From Escherichia coli (GTDB taxonomy: Bacteria > Pseudomonadota > Gammaproteobacteria > Enterobacterales > Enterobacteriaceae), in NCBI RefSeq assembly GCF_003334765.1, contig NZ_QOWT01000006.1: DNA of 64,000 nt. One strand, 5' to 3'. Below, one piece after another: positions 1 to 51,583 of this stretch (positions are counted from its first letter, which is position 1; each line of letters starts with the position of its first letter). A program made the translations under genes and the position numbers. The notes under the pieces were generated by a model. The model worked only from the letters and a program-made list of their open reading frames with translations, was not told where the DNA came from and ran no database searches.

Positions 1-425
1 TCGTTGTATTTGAACAACTCCGGGCGAAAGTGAATTTCACGCGCCAGATGTGTTGCTGGATCTACAGAAAACATACGAACGCGGCGACGGAATCCCATTC
101 CCATATGGAAGAACTGAGCGTCCAGTTGACGGTTCTCAACGTTATGCCAGAGCGATTTTTCGGCGTCGTATTGAATACTGTTATAAGCCTGCGGCGTCAT
201 TGTCGCCAGCGTGTCAGGTAACGGACGAGGCGCACCACGCCACGCTGTTTGCGCTAAGTCGTGCGCCATTGACTGTAGAATGGAGAAGTCAAAACGCTGG
301 GTTTGCCCGTCGGCAATATCAGAATCTGCCGCGAATGCCGCCTGAGAAAAAAGAGAAGCAATGCCGCTGGTACCGCACACGGCGGCCATAGCCATTGAAC
401 CTTTAATAAATCGTCTACGATCCAT
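1..425 (-). CDS. opgD: Glucans biosynthesis protein D (OpgD/MdoD), 5' portion only; gene runs off the window start
   Basis: Reverse-strand translation from ATG at 423-425 gives [32 protein letters not shown]... with a twin-arginine Tat motif (RRxFIK); no stop before the window edge. Matches remembered OpgD N-terminus. Confidence 0.88.
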
Positions 426-649
426 ACCTGAAAGTGAGTCCTTCTGGTGTTGTGAATGGTCCCGCGCTGGTCGTTTTCAGCGGCAAGAAAGTGCTTATTT
501 ATGACCGCTCACTCTAGACAATATTTATTAATAATCCAATTGTTGAACTGAGAGAATATGCATAAATCGGCATTTTTTTTATGTCGATGGGATGAGCCTG
601 ATTCGTTTGTAAAATCAGGCAAATTTTTGCAAAGGCGGATGGTCAGATT

Positions 650-1993
650 TTAAAGCAAACCACAGCGACGTTTACTGCGTTCTTCCGCTTCCTGGTAAAG
701 CTGGAACTCATCCAAAACCGGACAACCCAACGCCTGCTCAAATGCTTCGCGACTGGCATTACCGTGACTGCGTGTCTGCGTTTCATTACCCAGATTTGAC
801 TGGAAGATCCCCGCCGCGCTAACGGGCAAGAAATCTTCATAGGTGATGGGTTGCGCCACTACCCAACCACGTTCAATTAAGGGCTGTGGATCGTCTCCAG
901 GATGAATCGCCTGACGATGCGCCTCACCCGAAGGCGTCAGACGGTACCGGAACCATGCCAACCCTTGCTGACGCATTAAAAACTCACTGTCAGGAAAAGT
1001 GCGGAAGGTTTCCTGTAAATGCATTTGGTGAGTGAGATTATCCTGCCCGGTTCCAGCGTTACGCAGAAGATCATCATACAGTTGTCGCCCTTTCGGCGTT
1101 AATGCCACGCCACGCTGCTCAATTTCACCAAAGCGCGCGGTATGCGTGCCCTGTTTCTGCCCCGCAAACAACACCGTCTCTTCCAGTGCTTTAAAGCTGG
1201 TCTGGCGTAGTAAAATCGGTACCTCGCGGCGCGGCGGCCCCTCGATGAGAATTTTGGGTTCAATTCCGCATTCAGGCATCATCGACTGCACCCGGTCAAT
1301 ATCCAGCGTACGTGGCGTCAGGTGGTTGATATGGCATCCAGGAAAACAGACCACATCAGCAATCAACCGATGTTCGTTGTGCAATGCGCGATAGGTTTCT
1401 TCATCTACCGTTGCTGACTGGTGCCAGCGAAACGTTTCCAGGGCTTCCTGCACAAACTCCTGTGCCTGTGTTTCGTTAAAACCGCCCTGCTGCTCATATT
1501 CCTCTAACAGTTGTCGACAACGTGGGGTGAAGATATCGCGCTGACGCAGAATCTCCGCCGCTTTCTGGCGCAAAATTTCGTTCTCGATAAGCTCAAGGCG
1601 GAGTAAGGAGGTAAAAACGCGGAAGGGATTACGCGCCAGAGAAGCATCATCAATGGGCCGAAATGCTGTCGAATGTACCGGCACCCCTGCCTGCGAGAGA
1701 TCGTAATAGCTCACCGGGTACATCCCCATAATGGCAAACATCCGCCGAAGAGTAGCAAGCTCTTGTGCAGTCCCAACGCGAATCGCCCCATGACGTTCAA
1801 CATTCAGTCGCGCCAGCTCGTCTGCATTTACCATTTTTTCGTGCAGTTGAGGATTGTTTTCCAGCACAGCCAGATTCACATCAGCTACCAGTTCCAGCAG
1901 CGTGCCATATTGCGGAACTTCTTGCTGGTACATGGCTGACATTGCCTGCGAAAACTGTTCCCGAATCTCATCCGCCGTGATGCTGTTCGCCAT
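650..1993 (-). CDS. ydcJ: DUF1338-family metalloenzyme YdcJ (447 aa)
   Basis: Six-frame ORF 650..1993 (-), 447 aa, MANSITADEIREQF...; length and sequence match remembered E. coli YdcJ. Confidence 0.93.
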   Translation of the reverse strand: MANSITADEIREQFSQAMSAMYQQEVPQYGTLLELVADVNLAVLENNPQLHEKMVNADELARLNVERHGAIRVGTAQELATLRRMFAIMGMYPVSYYDLSQAGVPVHSTAFRPIDDASLARNPFRVFTSLLRLELIENEILRQKAAEILRQRDIFTPRCRQLLEEYEQQGGFNETQAQEFVQEALETFRWHQSATVDEETYRALHNEHRLIADVVCFPGCHINHLTPRTLDIDRVQSMMPECGIEPKILIEGPPRREVPILLRQTSFKALEETVLFAGQKQGTHTARFGEIEQRGVALTPKGRQLYDDLLRNAGTGQDNLTHQMHLQETFRTFPDSEFLMRQQGLAWFRYRLTPSGEAHRQAIHPGDDPQPLIERGWVVAQPITYEDFLPVSAAGIFQSNLGNETQTRSHGNASREAFEQALGCPVLDEFQLYQEAEERSKRRCGLL

Positions 1994-2209
1994 AGTGTCT
2001 GCCTCCAGTGGTCAGTAATCTGGAGTGTAGGTAACCGCATTCACTCTTGCGGGAAGAATTTACAAACTGTGATCTCGCCGCGAAAACATCAATATTATCC
2101 ATTTTGCTGTAACATAATTGCTTTAATTGTTAATAATATTTTGCAATCAAGTTATCATAATCAAACAACTTCACTTGTCAGCGACACCGCTTCGTTTTTA
2201 ACATCGCTT

Positions 2210-3133
2210 ATGGAAAAAAATAGTCTGTTTAGTCAGCGCATCCGTTTGCGCCACCTTCATACATTCGTAGCTGTCGCACAACAAGGAACTTTGGGGCGCG
2301 CGGCTGAAACCCTTAATTTGAGTCAACCTGCGCTCTCTAAGACATTGAATGAACTGGAGCAGCTGACTGGCGCTCGCTTGTTTGAGCGTGGTCGTCAGGG
2401 GGCGCAACTTACCTTACCCGGCGAACAATTTTTAACGCATGCAGTCAGAGTTCTTGACGCCATCAACACTGCCGGACGGTCGCTTCATCGTAAAGAAGGT
2501 CTTAATAATGATGTCGTCAGGGTTGGTGCACTACCTACTGCGGCACTGGGGATATTACCTTCGGTTATAGGTCAGTTTCATCAGCAACAAAAAGAGACGA
2601 CCTTGCAAGTTGCGACAATGAGTAACCCTATGATTCTGGCGGGTTTAAAAACCGGGGAAATCGATATCGGCATTGGTCGGATGTCAGATCCTGAACTGAT
2701 GACCGGGCTTAATTACGAACTGCTGTTTCTTGAATCGTTGAAGCTGGTTGTCCGCCCTAATCACCCGCTACTTCAGGAGAACGTAACGCTAAGCCGGGTG
2801 CTGGAATGGCCGGTCGTTGTATCACCAGAAGGCACTGCGCCACGCCAGCATTCAGATGCATTAGTGCAGAGCCAGGGCTGTAAAATTCCTTCGGGTTGTA
2901 TCGAAACGCTGTCTGCTTCGCTATCTCGTCAACTTACGGTTGAATACGATTACGTGTGGTTTGTCCCTTCTGGCGCTGTAAAAGACGACCTGCGTCATGC
3001 CACGCTGGTGGCCCTGCCTGTTCCGGGACATGGTGCAGGCGAACCGATTGGAATACTGACCCGCGTAGATGCGACGTTCTCTTCTGGTTGCCAGTTGATG
3101 ATTAACGCTATTCGAAAATCAATGCCGTTCTGA
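2210..3133 (+). CDS. ydcI: LysR-family transcriptional regulator YdcI (307 aa)
   Basis: ORF 2069..3133 (+) contains internal ATG at 2210 giving MEKNSLFSQRIRLRHLHTFVAVAQQGTLGRAAE... (N-terminal HTH of LysR type); the 47-codon upstream extension in the ORF track is not part of the protein. Confidence 0.92.
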   Translation: MEKNSLFSQRIRLRHLHTFVAVAQQGTLGRAAETLNLSQPALSKTLNELEQLTGARLFERGRQGAQLTLPGEQFLTHAVRVLDAINTAGRSLHRKEGLNNDVVRVGALPTAALGILPSVIGQFHQQQKETTLQVATMSNPMILAGLKTGEIDIGIGRMSDPELMTGLNYELLFLESLKLVVRPNHPLLQENVTLSRVLEWPVVVSPEGTAPRQHSDALVQSQGCKIPSGCIETLSASLSRQLTVEYDYVWFVPSGAVKDDLRHATLVALPVPGHGAGEPIGILTRVDATFSSGCQLMINAIRKSMPF

Positions 3134-4880: not shown

Positions 4881-5104
4881 CCAAAAACCTCTTTGCGTCA
4901 CATTTTTACAACAATTATTGCATAGAAAATTAATGCTATTGGAATGAAGAGAGTAACGAATGGCTAAACTGGCTAACCCGAATGACGAAAAATTCTGGAA
5001 AACAGCACGCAATTTCGTGAAGTGATTATTTTCGTCCCTAAGGAAACCTCATAGGATGCCTGCGGGTGCCTGAGACTTTCTGTTTTCAGGCTAACCGGGA
5101 ATCA

Positions 5105-5151
5105 GAAAGACGAAGGCCCCGACCGATATTTCTATCAACCGAGGCCAACGA

Positions 5152-5170
<19 letters not shown>
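5105..5170 (-). ncRNA. sokB: Antisense RNA SokB of the hokB/sokB type I toxin-antitoxin locus (approximate position)
   Basis: Placed by the conserved hok/sok architecture (antisense RNA overlapping the mok translation-initiation region) and my recollection that sokB lies about 50-100 nt upstream of hokB. Boundaries are not read from the sequence. Confidence 0.3.
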
Positions 5171-5359
<189 letters not shown>

Positions 5360-5604: not shown

Positions 5605-5848
5605 ATAACCTCCATGGTTTATCGAATCTTATGTTCGATTTGAACGTTATACGCTGGTTTATTTTGATACCGTTGATGAGATCAAAGATCGGGTGAATTG
5701 ATTAAAAATAAGCCAGATGGACGTATGGGCAAGGATTATGGTTTTATTTATCATACAAATAAATATAATAGGCGCTTCCGATGTAGACCCGTATTCTTCG
5801 CCTGTACCACGGGTCGGTTTTAGTACAGGCGTTTTCTTTAAATATCCT

Positions 5849-47144: not shown

Positions 47145-48050
47145 ATGAACCCCGCAGTGGATAATGAGTTTCAGCAATGGCTTTCCCAAATCAATCAGGT
47201 ATGCGGAAATTTTACCGGACGCCTGCTGACTGAGCGTTACACGGGTGTACTGGACACGCATTTTGCCAAAGGACTAAAGCTGAGTACCGTGACAACCAGC
47301 GGGGTGAATTTATCCCGCACCTGGCAGGAAGTAAAAGGCAGCGACGATGCCTGGTTTTACACCGTTTTTCAGCTTAGTGGTCAGGCAATAATGGAGCAGG
47401 ATGAGCGTCAGGTGCAGATTGGCGCTGGCGATATTACGTTACTCGATGCCTCACGCCCCTGTTCGCTTTACTGGCAGGAGTCTTCTAAACAGATTTCATT
47501 ACTTTTGCCACGCACTCTGCTGGAACAATATTTTCCCCATCAAAAACCTGTCTGCGCAGAAAGACTGGACGCTGACTTACCCATGGTGCAACTCAGTCAT
47601 CGCCTGTTACAGGAGAGCATGAATAATCCGGCACTTTCTGAAACAGAAAGTGAAGCTGCGCTACAGGCGATGGTGTGTCTGCTGCGCCCGGTACTTCATC
47701 AGCGGGAATCTGTTCAACCTCGTCGTGAACGTCAGTTTCAAAAAGTGGTTACGTTGATAGACGATAATATTCGCGAAGAGATATTACGCCCGGAGTGGAT
47801 AGCCGGAGAGACAGGTATGTCAGTACGTAGTTTGTACCGAATGTTTGCCGATAAAGGTTTGGTAGTCGCGCAATATATTCGTAACCGTCGTCTCGATTTT
47901 TGTGCAGATGCGATTCGCCATGCCGCAGATGATGAAAAACTGGCAGGCATCGGCTTTCATTGGGGATTTTCTGACCAGAGTCATTTTTCAACGGTATTTA
48001 AGCAACGCTTTGGGATGACGCCAGGCGAGTATCGACGTAAATTCCGCTAA
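47145..48050 (+). CDS. feaR: AraC-family activator of tynA and feaB (301 aa)
   Basis: ORF 47145..48050 (+), 301 aa, MNPAVDNEFQQWLSQINQVCGNFTGRL…; C-terminal AraC HTH (…GFHWGFSDQSHFSTVFKQRFGMTPGEYR…). Confidence 0.95.
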   Translation: MNPAVDNEFQQWLSQINQVCGNFTGRLLTERYTGVLDTHFAKGLKLSTVTTSGVNLSRTWQEVKGSDDAWFYTVFQLSGQAIMEQDERQVQIGAGDITLLDASRPCSLYWQESSKQISLLLPRTLLEQYFPHQKPVCAERLDADLPMVQLSHRLLQESMNNPALSETESEAALQAMVCLLRPVLHQRESVQPRRERQFQKVVTLIDDNIREEILRPEWIAGETGMSVRSLYRMFADKGLVVAQYIRNRRLDFCADAIRHAADDEKLAGIGFHWGFSDQSHFSTVFKQRFGMTPGEYRRKFR

Positions 48051-48085
48051 CTAATTGGCGTTGCATGTACTGCAACGCCAATTAG
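48051..48085. other. Perfect 15-bp inverted repeat immediately after the feaR stop (possible terminator or protein-binding palindrome)
   Basis: ctaattggcgttgca-tgtac-tgcaacgccaattag; not followed by a clear U-tract. Confidence 0.4.
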
Positions 48086-48221
48086 TTAAAACAGATATTT
48101 GACTATGCATTTTTCAGGGCAAAAGGCAATTTGACAGGAGTTTTTGAATATTCACCTTGTTTCAGGAAAATAGATCAATCGCCTTCTCCTGTAGCGTTAT
48201 CCCGATATTGCGGTTTTGCTA

Positions 48222-48548
48222 TTAAAATTTTCGCACCCATTTACCGTTTATCCCTTGTACATATTCCCCCGGTTTGGCCCGAGCTACGAGCTTTTGCCCG
48301 GCGAGTTTCGCGATATCATCTACCGACACATTATTTTGCTTTGCCAGTTGTTGGTAACTCGCTTTACGTTCGGCATTAATGTCGGCTACTAATTTCTCTG
48401 TTTCAGCATCCGTTTTCAGCGCAACCAGATAACCGTAAAATGTTTCACCTACCCGCCCCTGAGTTCTGGCTTCATCCAGAGTCAATGCCATTACATTGCT
48501 GCTTACCAGCCCAACAAGAAACGCACAAAGAAGTAATGTTTTCTTCAT
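48222..48548 (-). CDS. ydbL: Periplasmic DUF1318 protein YdbL (108 aa)
   Basis: ORF 48222..48629 (-); ATG at 48546-48548 gives MKKTLLLCAFLVGLVSSNVMA|LTLDEARTQG… (signal peptide); the upstream 27 codons of the track ORF overlap ynbE and are not used. Confidence 0.9.
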   Translation of the reverse strand: MKKTLLLCAFLVGLVSSNVMALTLDEARTQGRVGETFYGYLVALKTDAETEKLVADINAERKASYQQLAKQNNVSVDDIAKLAGQKLVARAKPGEYVQGINGKWVRKF

Positions 48549-48555
48549 CATCACC

Positions 48556-48741
48556 TCAGAAAAGATCGCTACGAGTTTCAAGCAGCTCTTCGACATCTTT
48601 GTCTGCCTTGATGATGATCTCATGCTCAATTTTAACGTTCATATTGATAGTGATCGGTTCCTTAGGTGCAGCGACTTCAATGCGAGGCGTACAGCCAACC
48701 AGCATAAAAGATGACGTCAACGCAGCCAGTAAAATTTTCAT
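48556..48741 (-). CDS. ynbE: Lipoprotein YnbE (61 aa)
   Basis: ORF 48556..48741 (-), MKILLAALTSSFMLVGC|TPRIEV… (lipobox LVGC); overlaps the ydbH stop by 4 nt. Confidence 0.92.
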   Translation of the reverse strand: MKILLAALTSSFMLVGCTPRIEVAAPKEPITINMNVKIEHEIIIKADKDVEELLETRSDLF

Positions 48742-51377
48742 TGTTTTTCCTCACACTCTTTTCCTTGCGGACAGTCATTTCCCGGCAGACGTGCGTTCTG
48801 CTCCAGCCATGCCTGGAGATTATCGCCAAAGCGTAAACTGCGCCACAGCGTAAAAATATTCTCTTCATGATGGTAATTAAGGTTTACCGTACCGCTTTTA
48901 CCATCAACGCGACTGGTACCTGTAATGTTGGCCTGCATGGTTAATAAACCGAGATTATCTAAATTAATTTTTGTCGATGAACGGCTAATTTCCATATAGC
49001 GCAACCAGTTAATTGCTGAACCCGCAGTCATATTGTCTTTTACCACCGCATCCGCAGTGTCTTTATCCAGTCGCAATGTCATCGGCCCGCTATTCGCCAG
49101 CCAGCCATCTTTCACAATCCATTTTTCATTGTTCAGCCATAACGGCAGTGCACCACTAAATGCCCCGGACATGGCGAATTGTTTCGGATTGACGGCGCTA
49201 ACCAGTTCGCTGGATGAGAGATTATTCAGCCGCAACAGCGCCGGGTCATGTTGCGGCATACGTAATTGTTTCATCAGTACGTTACCGCCTAACACATCGA
49301 CGCTAACATCAGTCAACAGCAAGGGTTCTTCTTCAGTCCACGGATAACGCCCTTGCAAATCAGCCGTAATATTTTTCGCTGTCACCAGATTAATCACTTC
49401 GGCAATTCGCAACGTAACGGGGCCGCGAGTCCCCAGATGCCAGGCTCCATCGGCAAAACGGAAAGGCAGGACAAAATCGACACCGTTAACCTGATTATCT
49501 GGCATCCAGGCACTACCGCCTTTCAACACGCCGTGTCCTCCCGCGCGGAATCCTTGTTCAGGCGCAGCAGAAAATGCAACCTGAGCATACAGTTCACCAT
49601 CGCGTAAGTTCATCTTCCAGTCGGGTGGCACCAGCGGCTGGAATACGGTCAGTGATTGTTTAGGCCACCAGGCGTTACCGCGCAGACGAATACCGTCCCA
49701 GCGACCATTTACCCGAACCGGGCCAATCTCACCAGCATGTAAATCGCCTTTAAAGAGGAAATAGGTAGGATCGCGCCCATCGACGCTAAATTTTAAGGTT
49801 GATGGCGGTAACACACTGCCGCCAGTGAACAGCGTTTGCCCGGCGTCCAGTGACAGCGCGCCGCTAAAGGAGGGATGCTGTGCGTCACGTACCCAGACGA
49901 TGGGCTTGTCGAGAATTAATCGCGGCTTTTCTACCGTCATCGTACCGTATTGTAACTGGTCGAAACCGGTGGAGAGATCGGTCAGCGTAATCGTGCTGTC
50001 ATGCCACTCACCTTTTCCTGCGACATCCCAGGTGGCATTCATCGGTGTAAAACTCCCTTTTCCCCAGTAGCGCCACTGCCAGCGGCCAGCGTCAGGGAGA
50101 AAATCATTCGCCAGCCCATCCATATGCAGCACGAAATCGCCCAGTTCATTTTCATGCGCCTGCAAGATGGCCTGCAAACGTCCGTCAACACCACGTTGGG
50201 TGACTTTTACACCCGCTAAAGGCCAGCGGATTTCATCGATGTCCAGCGAATCGATGACTCTTCCCTTTGAACGAAGTAACGCGCCTGGCTCAAAGGTCAG
50301 CGTTGGGTCAGACAGACTTCCACTTAGCTGCGCAGGTAAACGGGCATATAAAATGAGGTCCGCCTGTTTCGCTTCACCGGTCAGCTGCAGAGGCAGCTGA
50401 CTGTTATCCATGCTTAATTTTCCTGGGCCAAAATTAAGCACCGCGTTGCCCTTACCCGCTTGCCCCTGGGTCAGCACACTCAGTCGTCCGCTGACCAGAG
50501 CGTTCTCAAGCCCTGCCTGCCAGTTGTCGACTTTGACACCCAGTCGGCCACTCAAAGGAAAACCTGCATACGGCCAGCTCCAGCGACCATCGCTTACGGT
50601 CAATTGTTGACGAGTAATTTGCCACGGCAAATCGAGCAACGGATCGCCGTTATCCCGTGCCAGCACGATCAATTGCCCGCTATTTTCCTGCCAGTCCAGC
50701 TCGGCATCCACCAGTGACGGTTCCTGCGGCAAGTTTAACGTCGCAGTAGCATGCCCACTTACAGGAAGTCCATCCGGCACGAGCGGCATAGCAAATTCCC
50801 CCACCAGTTTTACCGGCGGCTGATTTTCAAACGCGACGACATCCAGTTCGCTGACTGTAAGTTGTTGCCCTTTCAGCTGGCCTTGAAATTTAACTTTTTC
50901 GCCCTGATAACGCAGTTGCTGGATATCAGAGGTTAATGCGAGAGAGAGTTTTCCCTGCCATTCCTGCCAGGGAGAAAAAATCAGTTTATCGATATTGATC
51001 CAGGTGTTAGGCAGCATGGCCTGCCACTGCGCGAGTGTTTTTGGAGCGGCTGGCGATTGCTCCGTCTGCGGCAATTTCGCCAGACAAGCAGAATCAAGTT
51101 CTACCGTGCCGACGTTCAATAACCAGCGGCTGGGATGTGAAAGGCTGGCGTTGGTGATATGCGCAAGCTGACAATCTCCCACCAGATAACGGAGATCGGG
51201 AATGATTAAACCTTTACGCGTAATGCGTGGGCTTTCATCTAATGCAATACGTGTCCCGAGCGGTAGCCAGATGCCCGCCAGCGTGGGAACCCACAGCCCG
51301 AGCGTCATCAGCAGCGTCAACGGCACAAGAATAATCAGTAATAACAGCGCGAGAACGGCTTTATATTTACCCAGCAT
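48738..51377 (-). CDS. ydbH: AsmA-like / DUF748 inner-membrane-anchored periplasm-spanning protein YdbH (879 aa)
   Basis: ORF 48738..51377 (-), 879 aa, MLGKYKAVLALLLLIILVPLTLLMTLGLWV… (N-terminal TM anchor). Confidence 0.94.
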   Translation of the reverse strand: MLGKYKAVLALLLLIILVPLTLLMTLGLWVPTLAGIWLPLGTRIALDESPRITRKGLIIPDLRYLVGDCQLAHITNASLSHPSRWLLNVGTVELDSACLAKLPQTEQSPAAPKTLAQWQAMLPNTWINIDKLIFSPWQEWQGKLSLALTSDIQQLRYQGEKVKFQGQLKGQQLTVSELDVVAFENQPPVKLVGEFAMPLVPDGLPVSGHATATLNLPQEPSLVDAELDWQENSGQLIVLARDNGDPLLDLPWQITRQQLTVSDGRWSWPYAGFPLSGRLGVKVDNWQAGLENALVSGRLSVLTQGQAGKGNAVLNFGPGKLSMDNSQLPLQLTGEAKQADLILYARLPAQLSGSLSDPTLTFEPGALLRSKGRVIDSLDIDEIRWPLAGVKVTQRGVDGRLQAILQAHENELGDFVLHMDGLANDFLPDAGRWQWRYWGKGSFTPMNATWDVAGKGEWHDSTITLTDLSTGFDQLQYGTMTVEKPRLILDKPIVWVRDAQHPSFSGALSLDAGQTLFTGGSVLPPSTLKFSVDGRDPTYFLFKGDLHAGEIGPVRVNGRWDGIRLRGNAWWPKQSLTVFQPLVPPDWKMNLRDGELYAQVAFSAAPEQGFRAGGHGVLKGGSAWMPDNQVNGVDFVLPFRFADGAWHLGTRGPVTLRIAEVINLVTAKNITADLQGRYPWTEEEPLLLTDVSVDVLGGNVLMKQLRMPQHDPALLRLNNLSSSELVSAVNPKQFAMSGAFSGALPLWLNNEKWIVKDGWLANSGPMTLRLDKDTADAVVKDNMTAGSAINWLRYMEISRSSTKINLDNLGLLTMQANITGTSRVDGKSGTVNLNYHHEENIFTLWRSLRFGDNLQAWLEQNARLPGNDCPQGKECEEKQ

Positions 51378-51583
51378 GGGTAGTTAATATCCTGATTTAG
51401 CGAAAATTAAGCATTCAATACGGGTATTGTGGCATGTTTAACCGTTCAGTTGAAGGTTGCGCCTACACTAAGCATAGTTGTTGATGAATTTTTCAATATC
51501 GCCATAGCTTTCAATTAAATTTGAAATTTTGTAAAATATTTTTAGTAGCTTAAATGTGATTCAACATCACTGGAGAAAGTCTT

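Follow-up and report, generated by a model that had tools for sequence, protein, structure and literature searches.

How phospholipids are delivered to the outer membrane in Gram-negative species was a long-standing gap, and three redundant candidate routes have been proposed, one of which, the YdbH-YnbE-YdbL system, is also a possible antibiotic target. YdbH, TamB and YhdP are described in PMC8593681 as redundant and collectively essential AsmA-like proteins. YdbH and YnbE are needed when TamB and YhdP are absent, as revealed by synthetic lethality, and genetics combined with in vivo photo-cross-linking showed that they form a bridge from the inner to the outer membrane through beta-strand augmentation (Kumar, Davis and Ruiz, PNAS 2024, PMC11126948). 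Here, we analysed the ydbH-ynbE-ydbL locus (positions 48222-51377) in a 64,000-nucleotide stretch of Escherichia coli DNA (contig NZ_QOWT01000006.1 of assembly GCF_003334765.1), hereafter the window. This system is already known, and what the window holds is the very model locus of the published work: its coding sequence is that of the K-12 operon used in the published genetics, cross-linking and crystallography, and the window adds nothing new in this respect. Our checks of fold, family and ydbH-ynbE synteny agree with the published interpretation and support it. We consider it very likely that the locus is, as a whole, the known bridge operon providing a groove-based phospholipid route.

The published work provides a detailed framework. 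In vivo photo-cross-links connect YdbH's C-terminal domain to YnbE, a protein located in the outer membrane that forms multimers, and proline substitutions in the YnbE strand I30-I38 abolish function (PMC11126948). In the same study, YdbL was dispensable in a tamB yhdP background, its excess was lethal in that background, and its loss lowered the levels of YdbH and increased the YnbE multimers (PMC11126948). A 2.1 Å crystal structure of YdbL has since been obtained and, together with nuclear magnetic resonance and native mass spectrometry, it established that YdbL binds directly to the C-terminal helix of YnbE; YdbL toxicity is rescued by extra YdbH and YnbE, and free YdbL is degraded by DegP (De'Ath et al., bioRxiv 2026, 10.64898/2026.03.16.712125). 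In Pseudomonas aeruginosa, YdbH (PA5307) relies for the most part on the neighbouring ynbE (PA5306), the deletion of ynbE being somewhat milder than that of ydbH, and a periplasm-spanning YdbH-YhdP fusion works without YnbE (PMC12447247).

An earlier note on the window, made from the letters and a list of open reading frames (ORFs), had called three co-directional genes in this region. All three are present at the proposed coordinates, both in the ORF list and in the RefSeq annotation of the matching record, and they are indeed co-directional, to which we add that they all lie on the minus strand:

48738-51377, minus strand: ydbH coding sequence (CDS), 879 amino acids (aa) with an ATG start, encoding an inner-membrane-anchored AsmA-like (repeating beta-groove) protein (ORF, RefSeq CDS, Pfam, NCBIfam and AlphaFold2 (AF2) model)
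48556-48741, minus strand: ynbE CDS, a 61-aa outer-membrane lipoprotein precursor (ORF, RefSeq 'YnbE family lipoprotein', PF13617)
48222-48548, minus strand: ydbL CDS, a 108-aa periplasmic DUF1318 protein and chaperone-like modulator of YnbE (RefSeq CDS, PF07027, PDB 28oj)

The gene trio is thus confirmed. The matching K-12 record annotates the identical three CDS, the coding DNA shows no difference from that of E. coli K-12, and the flanks are also those of K-12, with feaR convergent on the ydbL side and ldhA divergent on the ydbH side. When 5426 complete E. coli genomes were searched with a 3.4-kb query covering the locus, 5418 gave a match and 5410 did so over at least 80% of the query; K-12 strains matched it at 100% except for one gap. 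Eight of the 5426 genomes gave no match, and five of the 5420 matches to the ydbH region fell on plasmid-labelled records.

YdbH matches Pfam PF11739 'Intermembrane phospholipid transport protein YdbH' over residues 14-862 (E=3.6e-291) and the NCBIfam equivalog NF007971 over residues 1-878 of 879 (1400.9 bits for a cut-off of 824), and these full-length profile matches place it in the YdbH family. YnbE matches PF13617 'YnbE-like lipoprotein' (E=3.7e-16) and YdbL matches PF07027 (DUF1318; E=2.2e-31). Given these Pfam scores, an NF007971 score above its cut-off and the near-universal presence of the locus in E. coli, the three ORFs did not arise by chance. Judged on its sequence, the locus is the E. 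coli ydbH-ynbE-ydbL operon, and its family assignments are unambiguous.

Family names also bear on a very different proposal. An old 'DctA-YdbH / Dicarboxylate transport' label still appears in some database entries, and 'Dicarboxylate transport' is also the source name given to several homologues, from which YdbH could be taken for an accessory of dicarboxylate transport. We give almost no credence to this idea: the current Pfam description, quoted above, refers to phospholipids, no dctA-type gene adjoins ydbH in the surveyed loci, and YdbH combines one transmembrane helix with a large beta domain in the periplasm (see below). On YdbH, 'Dicarboxylate transport' is a legacy label without support here.

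Hydropathy and structure prediction converge on the architecture of YdbH, starting with its N-terminus:

51267-51374 (codons 2-37), minus strand: N-terminal helix of YdbH, the predicted transmembrane anchor (Kyte-Doolittle hydropathy; AF2 helices at residues 2-24 and 26-37)

The best 19-residue Kyte-Doolittle window (2.95, residues 8-26) lies in the sole hydrophobic segment of the protein; hydrophobic 19-residue windows are confined to residues 1-40 and none starts past residue 22. Hydropathy and the AF2 helix at 2-37 therefore both bear out the N-terminal transmembrane anchor of the earlier note. A search of 1.84 billion representative proteins yielded 598 YdbH relatives at E<=0.001, and a 38-sequence alignment (A1) was used for an AF2 model, which reached a mean predicted local distance difference test (pLDDT) value of 86.1 and a predicted template modelling score (pTM) of 0.66. 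This model, a structure prediction that had been suggested as a check, shows the N-terminal helix (2-37), about 54 amphipathic beta-strands across residues 42-840 and a second helical stretch (841-862) that leads into a disordered tail. YdbH is thus predicted to consist of a single N-terminal anchor and a large periplasmic all-beta domain. Within the strands, the even/odd alternation of hydrophobicity was 2.40, compared with 1.57 +/- 0.18 (maximum 2.25) in 500 within-strand shuffles; the alternation exceeds that of all shuffles, and it is the pattern expected of a sheet with a single greasy face. A Foldseek comparison of the AF2 model with the PDB returned nothing beyond poor global matches, to LptD and ApoB100 (TM-score <0.2), and is uninformative for such an elongated model.

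The small partner YnbE carries three elements that bear on the bridge:

48691-48702, minus strand: YnbE lipobox L14-V15-G16-C17, in which C17 is the lipidated first mature residue; the +2 residue is T18 and not Asp
48628-48654, minus strand: amphipathic YnbE strand I30-I38 (ITINMNVKI), which augments the last YdbH strand (conservation, DSSP of a fusion model, literature)
48574-48600, minus strand: YnbE C-terminal helix K48-T56, the reported YdbL-binding site (helix at 382-390 of the fusion model)

The LVGC lipobox had been anticipated and does stand at residues 14-17; its L14 and C17 are invariant in 10 YnbE homologues (alignment A2), and this lipobox with its invariant Cys, together with the profile match, assigns YnbE to PF13617. 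In the same alignment, residues I32, N33, V36, H40 and I42 are invariant and T31 is nearly so. The C-terminal 'LLExxSDLF' helix, the site of YdbL binding in E. coli, is kept only in enterobacterial-type loci. We also modelled a fusion of YdbH 560-879, a (GGGGS)6 linker and mature YnbE, using 11 paired and 16 unpaired homologues (A3). In this model, YnbE 30-38 is a strand (DSSP, model residues 364-372, block pLDDT about 76) and 48-56 is a helix, which are the elements described in PMC11126948. Conservation and modelling suggest that YnbE 30-38 is a conserved amphipathic strand able to augment the YdbH sheet.

YdbL begins with an export signal:

48486-48548, minus strand: signal peptide of YdbL (residues 1-21), cleaved between VMA and L; the hydrophobic segment spans residues 4-22 and the crystallised chain starts at L22

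Residues 22-108 of YdbL are identical to chain A of PDB 28oj, 'Probable chaperone-like protein YdbL', and this identity to the crystallised protein, along with the profile match, identifies YdbL as a DUF1318 member. The hydrophobic segment and the mature crystallised chain agree with the signal peptide proposed in the earlier note; it is a Sec signal peptide, hence YdbL is periplasmic. Four metagenome or short-read gene calls (P0271, P0274, P0276 and P0277, 155-173 aa) match both PF13617 and PF07027, as if ynbE and ydbL were fused. Because the ynbE and ydbL frames differ in the window, these calls most likely reflect frameshift errors rather than genuine fusions.

As the literature has it, YdbH is held in the inner membrane by its one N-terminal helix, while its remaining part forms in the periplasm a long, twisted, open beta-sheet with a hydrophobic concave face. 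Strand 30-38 of the lipid-anchored outer-membrane YnbE joins the last YdbH strand, so that the groove reaches the outer membrane; this same strand allows YnbE to stack on itself. On published evidence too, YdbL seated on the C-terminal helix of YnbE limits runaway stacking, and an excess of YdbL titrates YnbE away from YdbH. Finally, we infer that the acyl chains of phospholipids may travel between the two membranes by sliding in the groove. The earlier note had named AsmA-like proteins as proposed phospholipid carriers with YnbE and YdbL as partners, and this is supported by PMC11126948, by 10.64898/2026.03.16.712125 and by PMC8593681. It had also stated that its proposal would fall if the three products did not interact, which the published genetics, cross-links and YdbL-YnbE binding contradict; the fold prediction, the co-purification and the synthetic phenotypes with yhdP and tamB that it had called for are already in published work.

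Several points weigh against this interpretation. Direct lipid transport by YdbH-YnbE is so far a proposal (PMC11126948). The modelled complex, at about 180 Å, is too short for a periplasm of about 250 Å (PMC11126948). Our fusion model was read at the level of secondary structure. Finally, YdbH shows no significant similarity to E. coli YhdP (hhalign of the YdbH profile, probability 0.3%), and the YdbH profile retrieved no relative among all PDB sequences, TamB chains included. More generally, single-sequence and YdbH-profile searches found no solved sequence relative of YdbH or YnbE in the PDB. Sequence homology between YdbH and YhdP or TamB is thus not supported by the hhalign value or by the PDB searches. 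Membership of YdbH in the AsmA-like, repeating beta-groove proteins is nevertheless compatible with the missing sequence link, because this superfamily is defined by fold.

The length of the bridge and the lack of a direct transport assay for YdbH (PMC11126948) would also suit another view, in which YdbH-YnbE acts mainly as a structural tether or contact site, or assists the assembly of outer-membrane proteins, and the lipid phenotypes are indirect. TamB was originally described as belonging to a beta-barrel assembly module (PMC11014939), and the predicted bridge alone is too short for the periplasm. However, the amphipathic strand pattern predicts a continuous hydrophobic face in YdbH, and YdbH shares its redundancy with TamB and YhdP, a hydrophobic groove in TamB being reported to transfer lipid (10.1101/2025.03.12.642747). 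Moreover, a fusion of YdbH and YhdP with the length to bridge the periplasm functions without YnbE (PMC12447247), which argues for a conduit with a length requirement and not for a specific tether. We thus regard a mainly structural role as improbable and favour a groove that conducts phospholipids.

The locus was then compared with distant YdbH homologues (26-49% identity) whose contigs were readable. A YnbE-type gene is found immediately 3' of the ydbH homologue: in 10 of 11 distant loci, a ynbE-like PF13617 gene directly follows ydbH. The two genes overlap by 4 nucleotides (nt) in five of these ten loci; elsewhere the junction varies between an overlap of 17 nt and a gap of 1 nt, with one gap of 111 nt. 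The exception (L014) is an AT-rich locus with a 973-aa form of YdbH, where no ORF of at least 30 aa fits the gap after ydbH. The distribution of ydbL is different. None of the nine distant loci with sufficient downstream sequence (L005-L009, L011-L013 and L017) has a ydbL next to ydbH-ynbE, and tblastn, run on the locus sequences, detected no YdbL-like sequence in any of 13 non-E. coli loci. Even L011, L012 and L017, which retain the enterobacterial ldhA-ydbH-ynbE context, are without an adjoining ydbL. Among the 120 homologues of YdbL that were listed, only close enterobacterial relatives (Escherichia, Shigella, Salmonella, Citrobacter) are represented.

The absence of an adjoining ydbL in distant loci fits YdbL as an accessory factor. 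Taken with the dispensability of YdbL in the tamB yhdP background (PMC11126948), it could also be read to mean that the three genes are mere neighbours, with ydbL in particular having no functional tie to ydbH-ynbE and lying beside them in E. coli by accident. This is very improbable: the 7-nt spacing and the Shine-Dalgarno sequence inside the ynbE stop imply co-expression (see below), YdbL overproduction is lethal specifically in cells that depend on YdbH-YnbE and is rescued by extra YdbH and YnbE, and the published direct binding of YdbL to the YnbE helix (10.64898/2026.03.16.712125) already contradicts it.

Five Pasteurellaceae-like loci, which carry ynbE and no ydbL at the locus, have instead a gene directly upstream of ydbH:

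L005, 178-990: HI_1241-type gene
L006, 3177-4001: HI_1241-type gene
L007, 3177-4001: HI_1241-type gene
L008, 2001-2825: HI_1241-type gene
L013, 131-949: HI_1241-type gene

The product is a polytopic membrane protein of about 272 aa with at least seven hydrophobic segments, which bears a precomputed Pfam assignment to PF27206 'HI_1241'; we found no NCBIfam match, no match in our local Pfam-A copy and no mention of it in a literature search. Its gene joins ydbH through a TAATG stop/start overlap in L006, L007 and L013 and through a 1-nt gap in L005. From its adjacency in these five loci, HI_1241 is a candidate partner for YdbH at the inner membrane. In eukaryotes, the membrane partners of VPS13/ATG2-type proteins are scramblases. 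It is tempting to speculate that ydbH-ynbE is an ancient portable pair whose third partner is lineage-specific, being YdbL in Escherichia/Salmonella/Citrobacter-like enterobacteria and, in Pasteurellaceae-like loci, the translationally coupled HI_1241, which by analogy could load lipid at the inner membrane or act in the manner of a scramblase; we hold this scenario to be rather unlikely, and it concerns related loci and not the window itself.

The gene junctions and boundaries of the operon are as follows:

48738-48741, minus strand: 4-nt ATGA overlap between the ynbE start and the ydbH stop, by direct reading, suggestive of translational coupling
48549-48555, minus strand: 7-nt ynbE-ydbL spacer, with a GAGG Shine-Dalgarno sequence (48554-48557) overlapping the ynbE stop
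51378-51583, no strand assigned: 206-nt divergent intergenic region between ydbH and ldhA, containing the ydbH leader, with a T4 run at 51403-51406 that is T5 in other genomes
48048-48088, no strand assigned: hairpin with a perfect 18-bp stem, overlapping the feaR stop 134 nt downstream of the ydbL stop, without a T-run

The 4-nt overlap between ydbH and ynbE had been correctly noted earlier; the 8-nt gap given for ynbE-ydbL had not, as both direct reading and the RefSeq annotation of the matching record give 7 nt. An in-frame alternative ydbL ATG 3 nt upstream (48551) would yield a 109-aa protein and shorten the gap to 4 nt. The distance from the GAGG to the annotated ATG is 5 nt, the alternative ATG being too close to it, and we prefer the annotated start because of this better Shine-Dalgarno spacing. 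The overlapping or near-abutting frames probably set the relative synthesis of YdbH, YnbE and YdbL, which fits the reported sensitivity of the system to the YdbL : YnbE ratio.

A consensus scan of the 206-nt ydbH-ldhA intergenic region detected no sigma-70-like promoter, a terminator scan detected no canonical terminator after ydbL, and Rfam detected no RNA family within or adjoining the operon. The 171-nt spacer between ydbL and feaR is highly structured, with a fold of -60.6 kcal/mol for 48030-48225 on the minus strand (z=-5.9 relative to shuffles). The 48048-48088 hairpin within this segment lacks a T-run and was not called by the terminator scan; it is plausibly a bidirectional terminator shared by the convergent feaR and ydbL transcripts.

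The sole difference from K-12 within the ydbH-ynbE-ydbL region is found in the ydbH leader, 26-29 nt upstream of the start codon: on the plus strand, positions 51403-51406 read AAAA (T4 in the sense of ydbH) and the other genomes have AAAAA. The longer run is present in 5409 of the 5410 complete E. coli genomes that have the segment, the short form being shared only with NCTC9082. Either a private mutation or a sequencing error in the homopolymer accounts for the short run.

Outside the operon, the window is a close relative of MG1655 with differences, and its identity with MG1655 was rejected: 37 mismatches were counted against the MG1655 record over 31.8 kb, and the ends of the window (1-2854 and 59469-64000) are not collinear with it. 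The IS30 and IS2 insertion that splits the ydbA autotransporter gene of MG1655 is absent here (about 26765-26813), and ydbA may be intact in the window. About 30 kb from ydbH, the ynbA-ynbB-ynbC-ynbD cluster (about 15080-19660, minus strand) encodes phospholipid-enzyme-like proteins, namely a CDP-alcohol phosphatidyltransferase, a CdsA-like cytidylyltransferase, a hydrolase/methyltransferase and a PAP2 phosphatase; the first indel relative to the MG1655 record falls where that record annotates ynbC as frameshifted. Rfam matches above the gathering score were FnrS (62121-62238, minus strand), MicC (57189-57309, minus strand), sok of the hokB locus (5064-5215, plus strand) and RydC (5775-5838, plus strand), all of them expected for this chromosomal region.

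How does the locus compare with the systems that have been described? The closest is the K-12 YdbH-YnbE-YdbL system itself (PMC11126948; 10.64898/2026.03.16.712125), with which the window shares the locus, the coding DNA, the gene order, the junctions and the feaR/ldhA flanks, differing only in non-coding or strain-level features such as the 1-nt shorter T-run in the ydbH leader. YhdP is, like YdbH, a redundant AsmA-like bridge that is anchored in the inner membrane and all-beta. However, YhdP is 1266 aa long and is proposed to cross the periplasm unaided, by means of hydrophobic helices at its C-terminus, and when its C-terminus is grafted onto YdbH, YnbE is no longer required (PMC12447247). 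TamB is also longer than YdbH, without detected similarity at the sequence level, and the partnerships of the two proteins differ: the partner of TamB is TamA, an Omp85 beta-barrel, whereas that of YdbH is a lipoprotein of 61 aa, and no YdbL-like modulator has been reported for TamB in the literature cited here.

Beyond bacteria, YdbH shares with the eukaryotic repeating beta-groove proteins VPS13 and ATG2 the proposed mechanism, in which a long hydrophobic groove bridges membranes and allows bulk lipid flow; the eukaryotic proteins are much larger and cytosolic, and AsmA-like proteins are regarded as the ancestors of VPS13/ATG2-type proteins (PMC11126948). For YdbL, an analogy with the curli proteins CsgC and CsgA was drawn by Kumar et al. 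(PMC11126948): in both cases, a small periplasmic protein blocks the runaway beta-strand polymerisation of its client. The two pairs are unrelated in sequence and fold, and, as compared with CsgC, YdbL binds an alpha-helix beside the strand that polymerises, its proposed mode of action being steric hindrance (10.64898/2026.03.16.712125).

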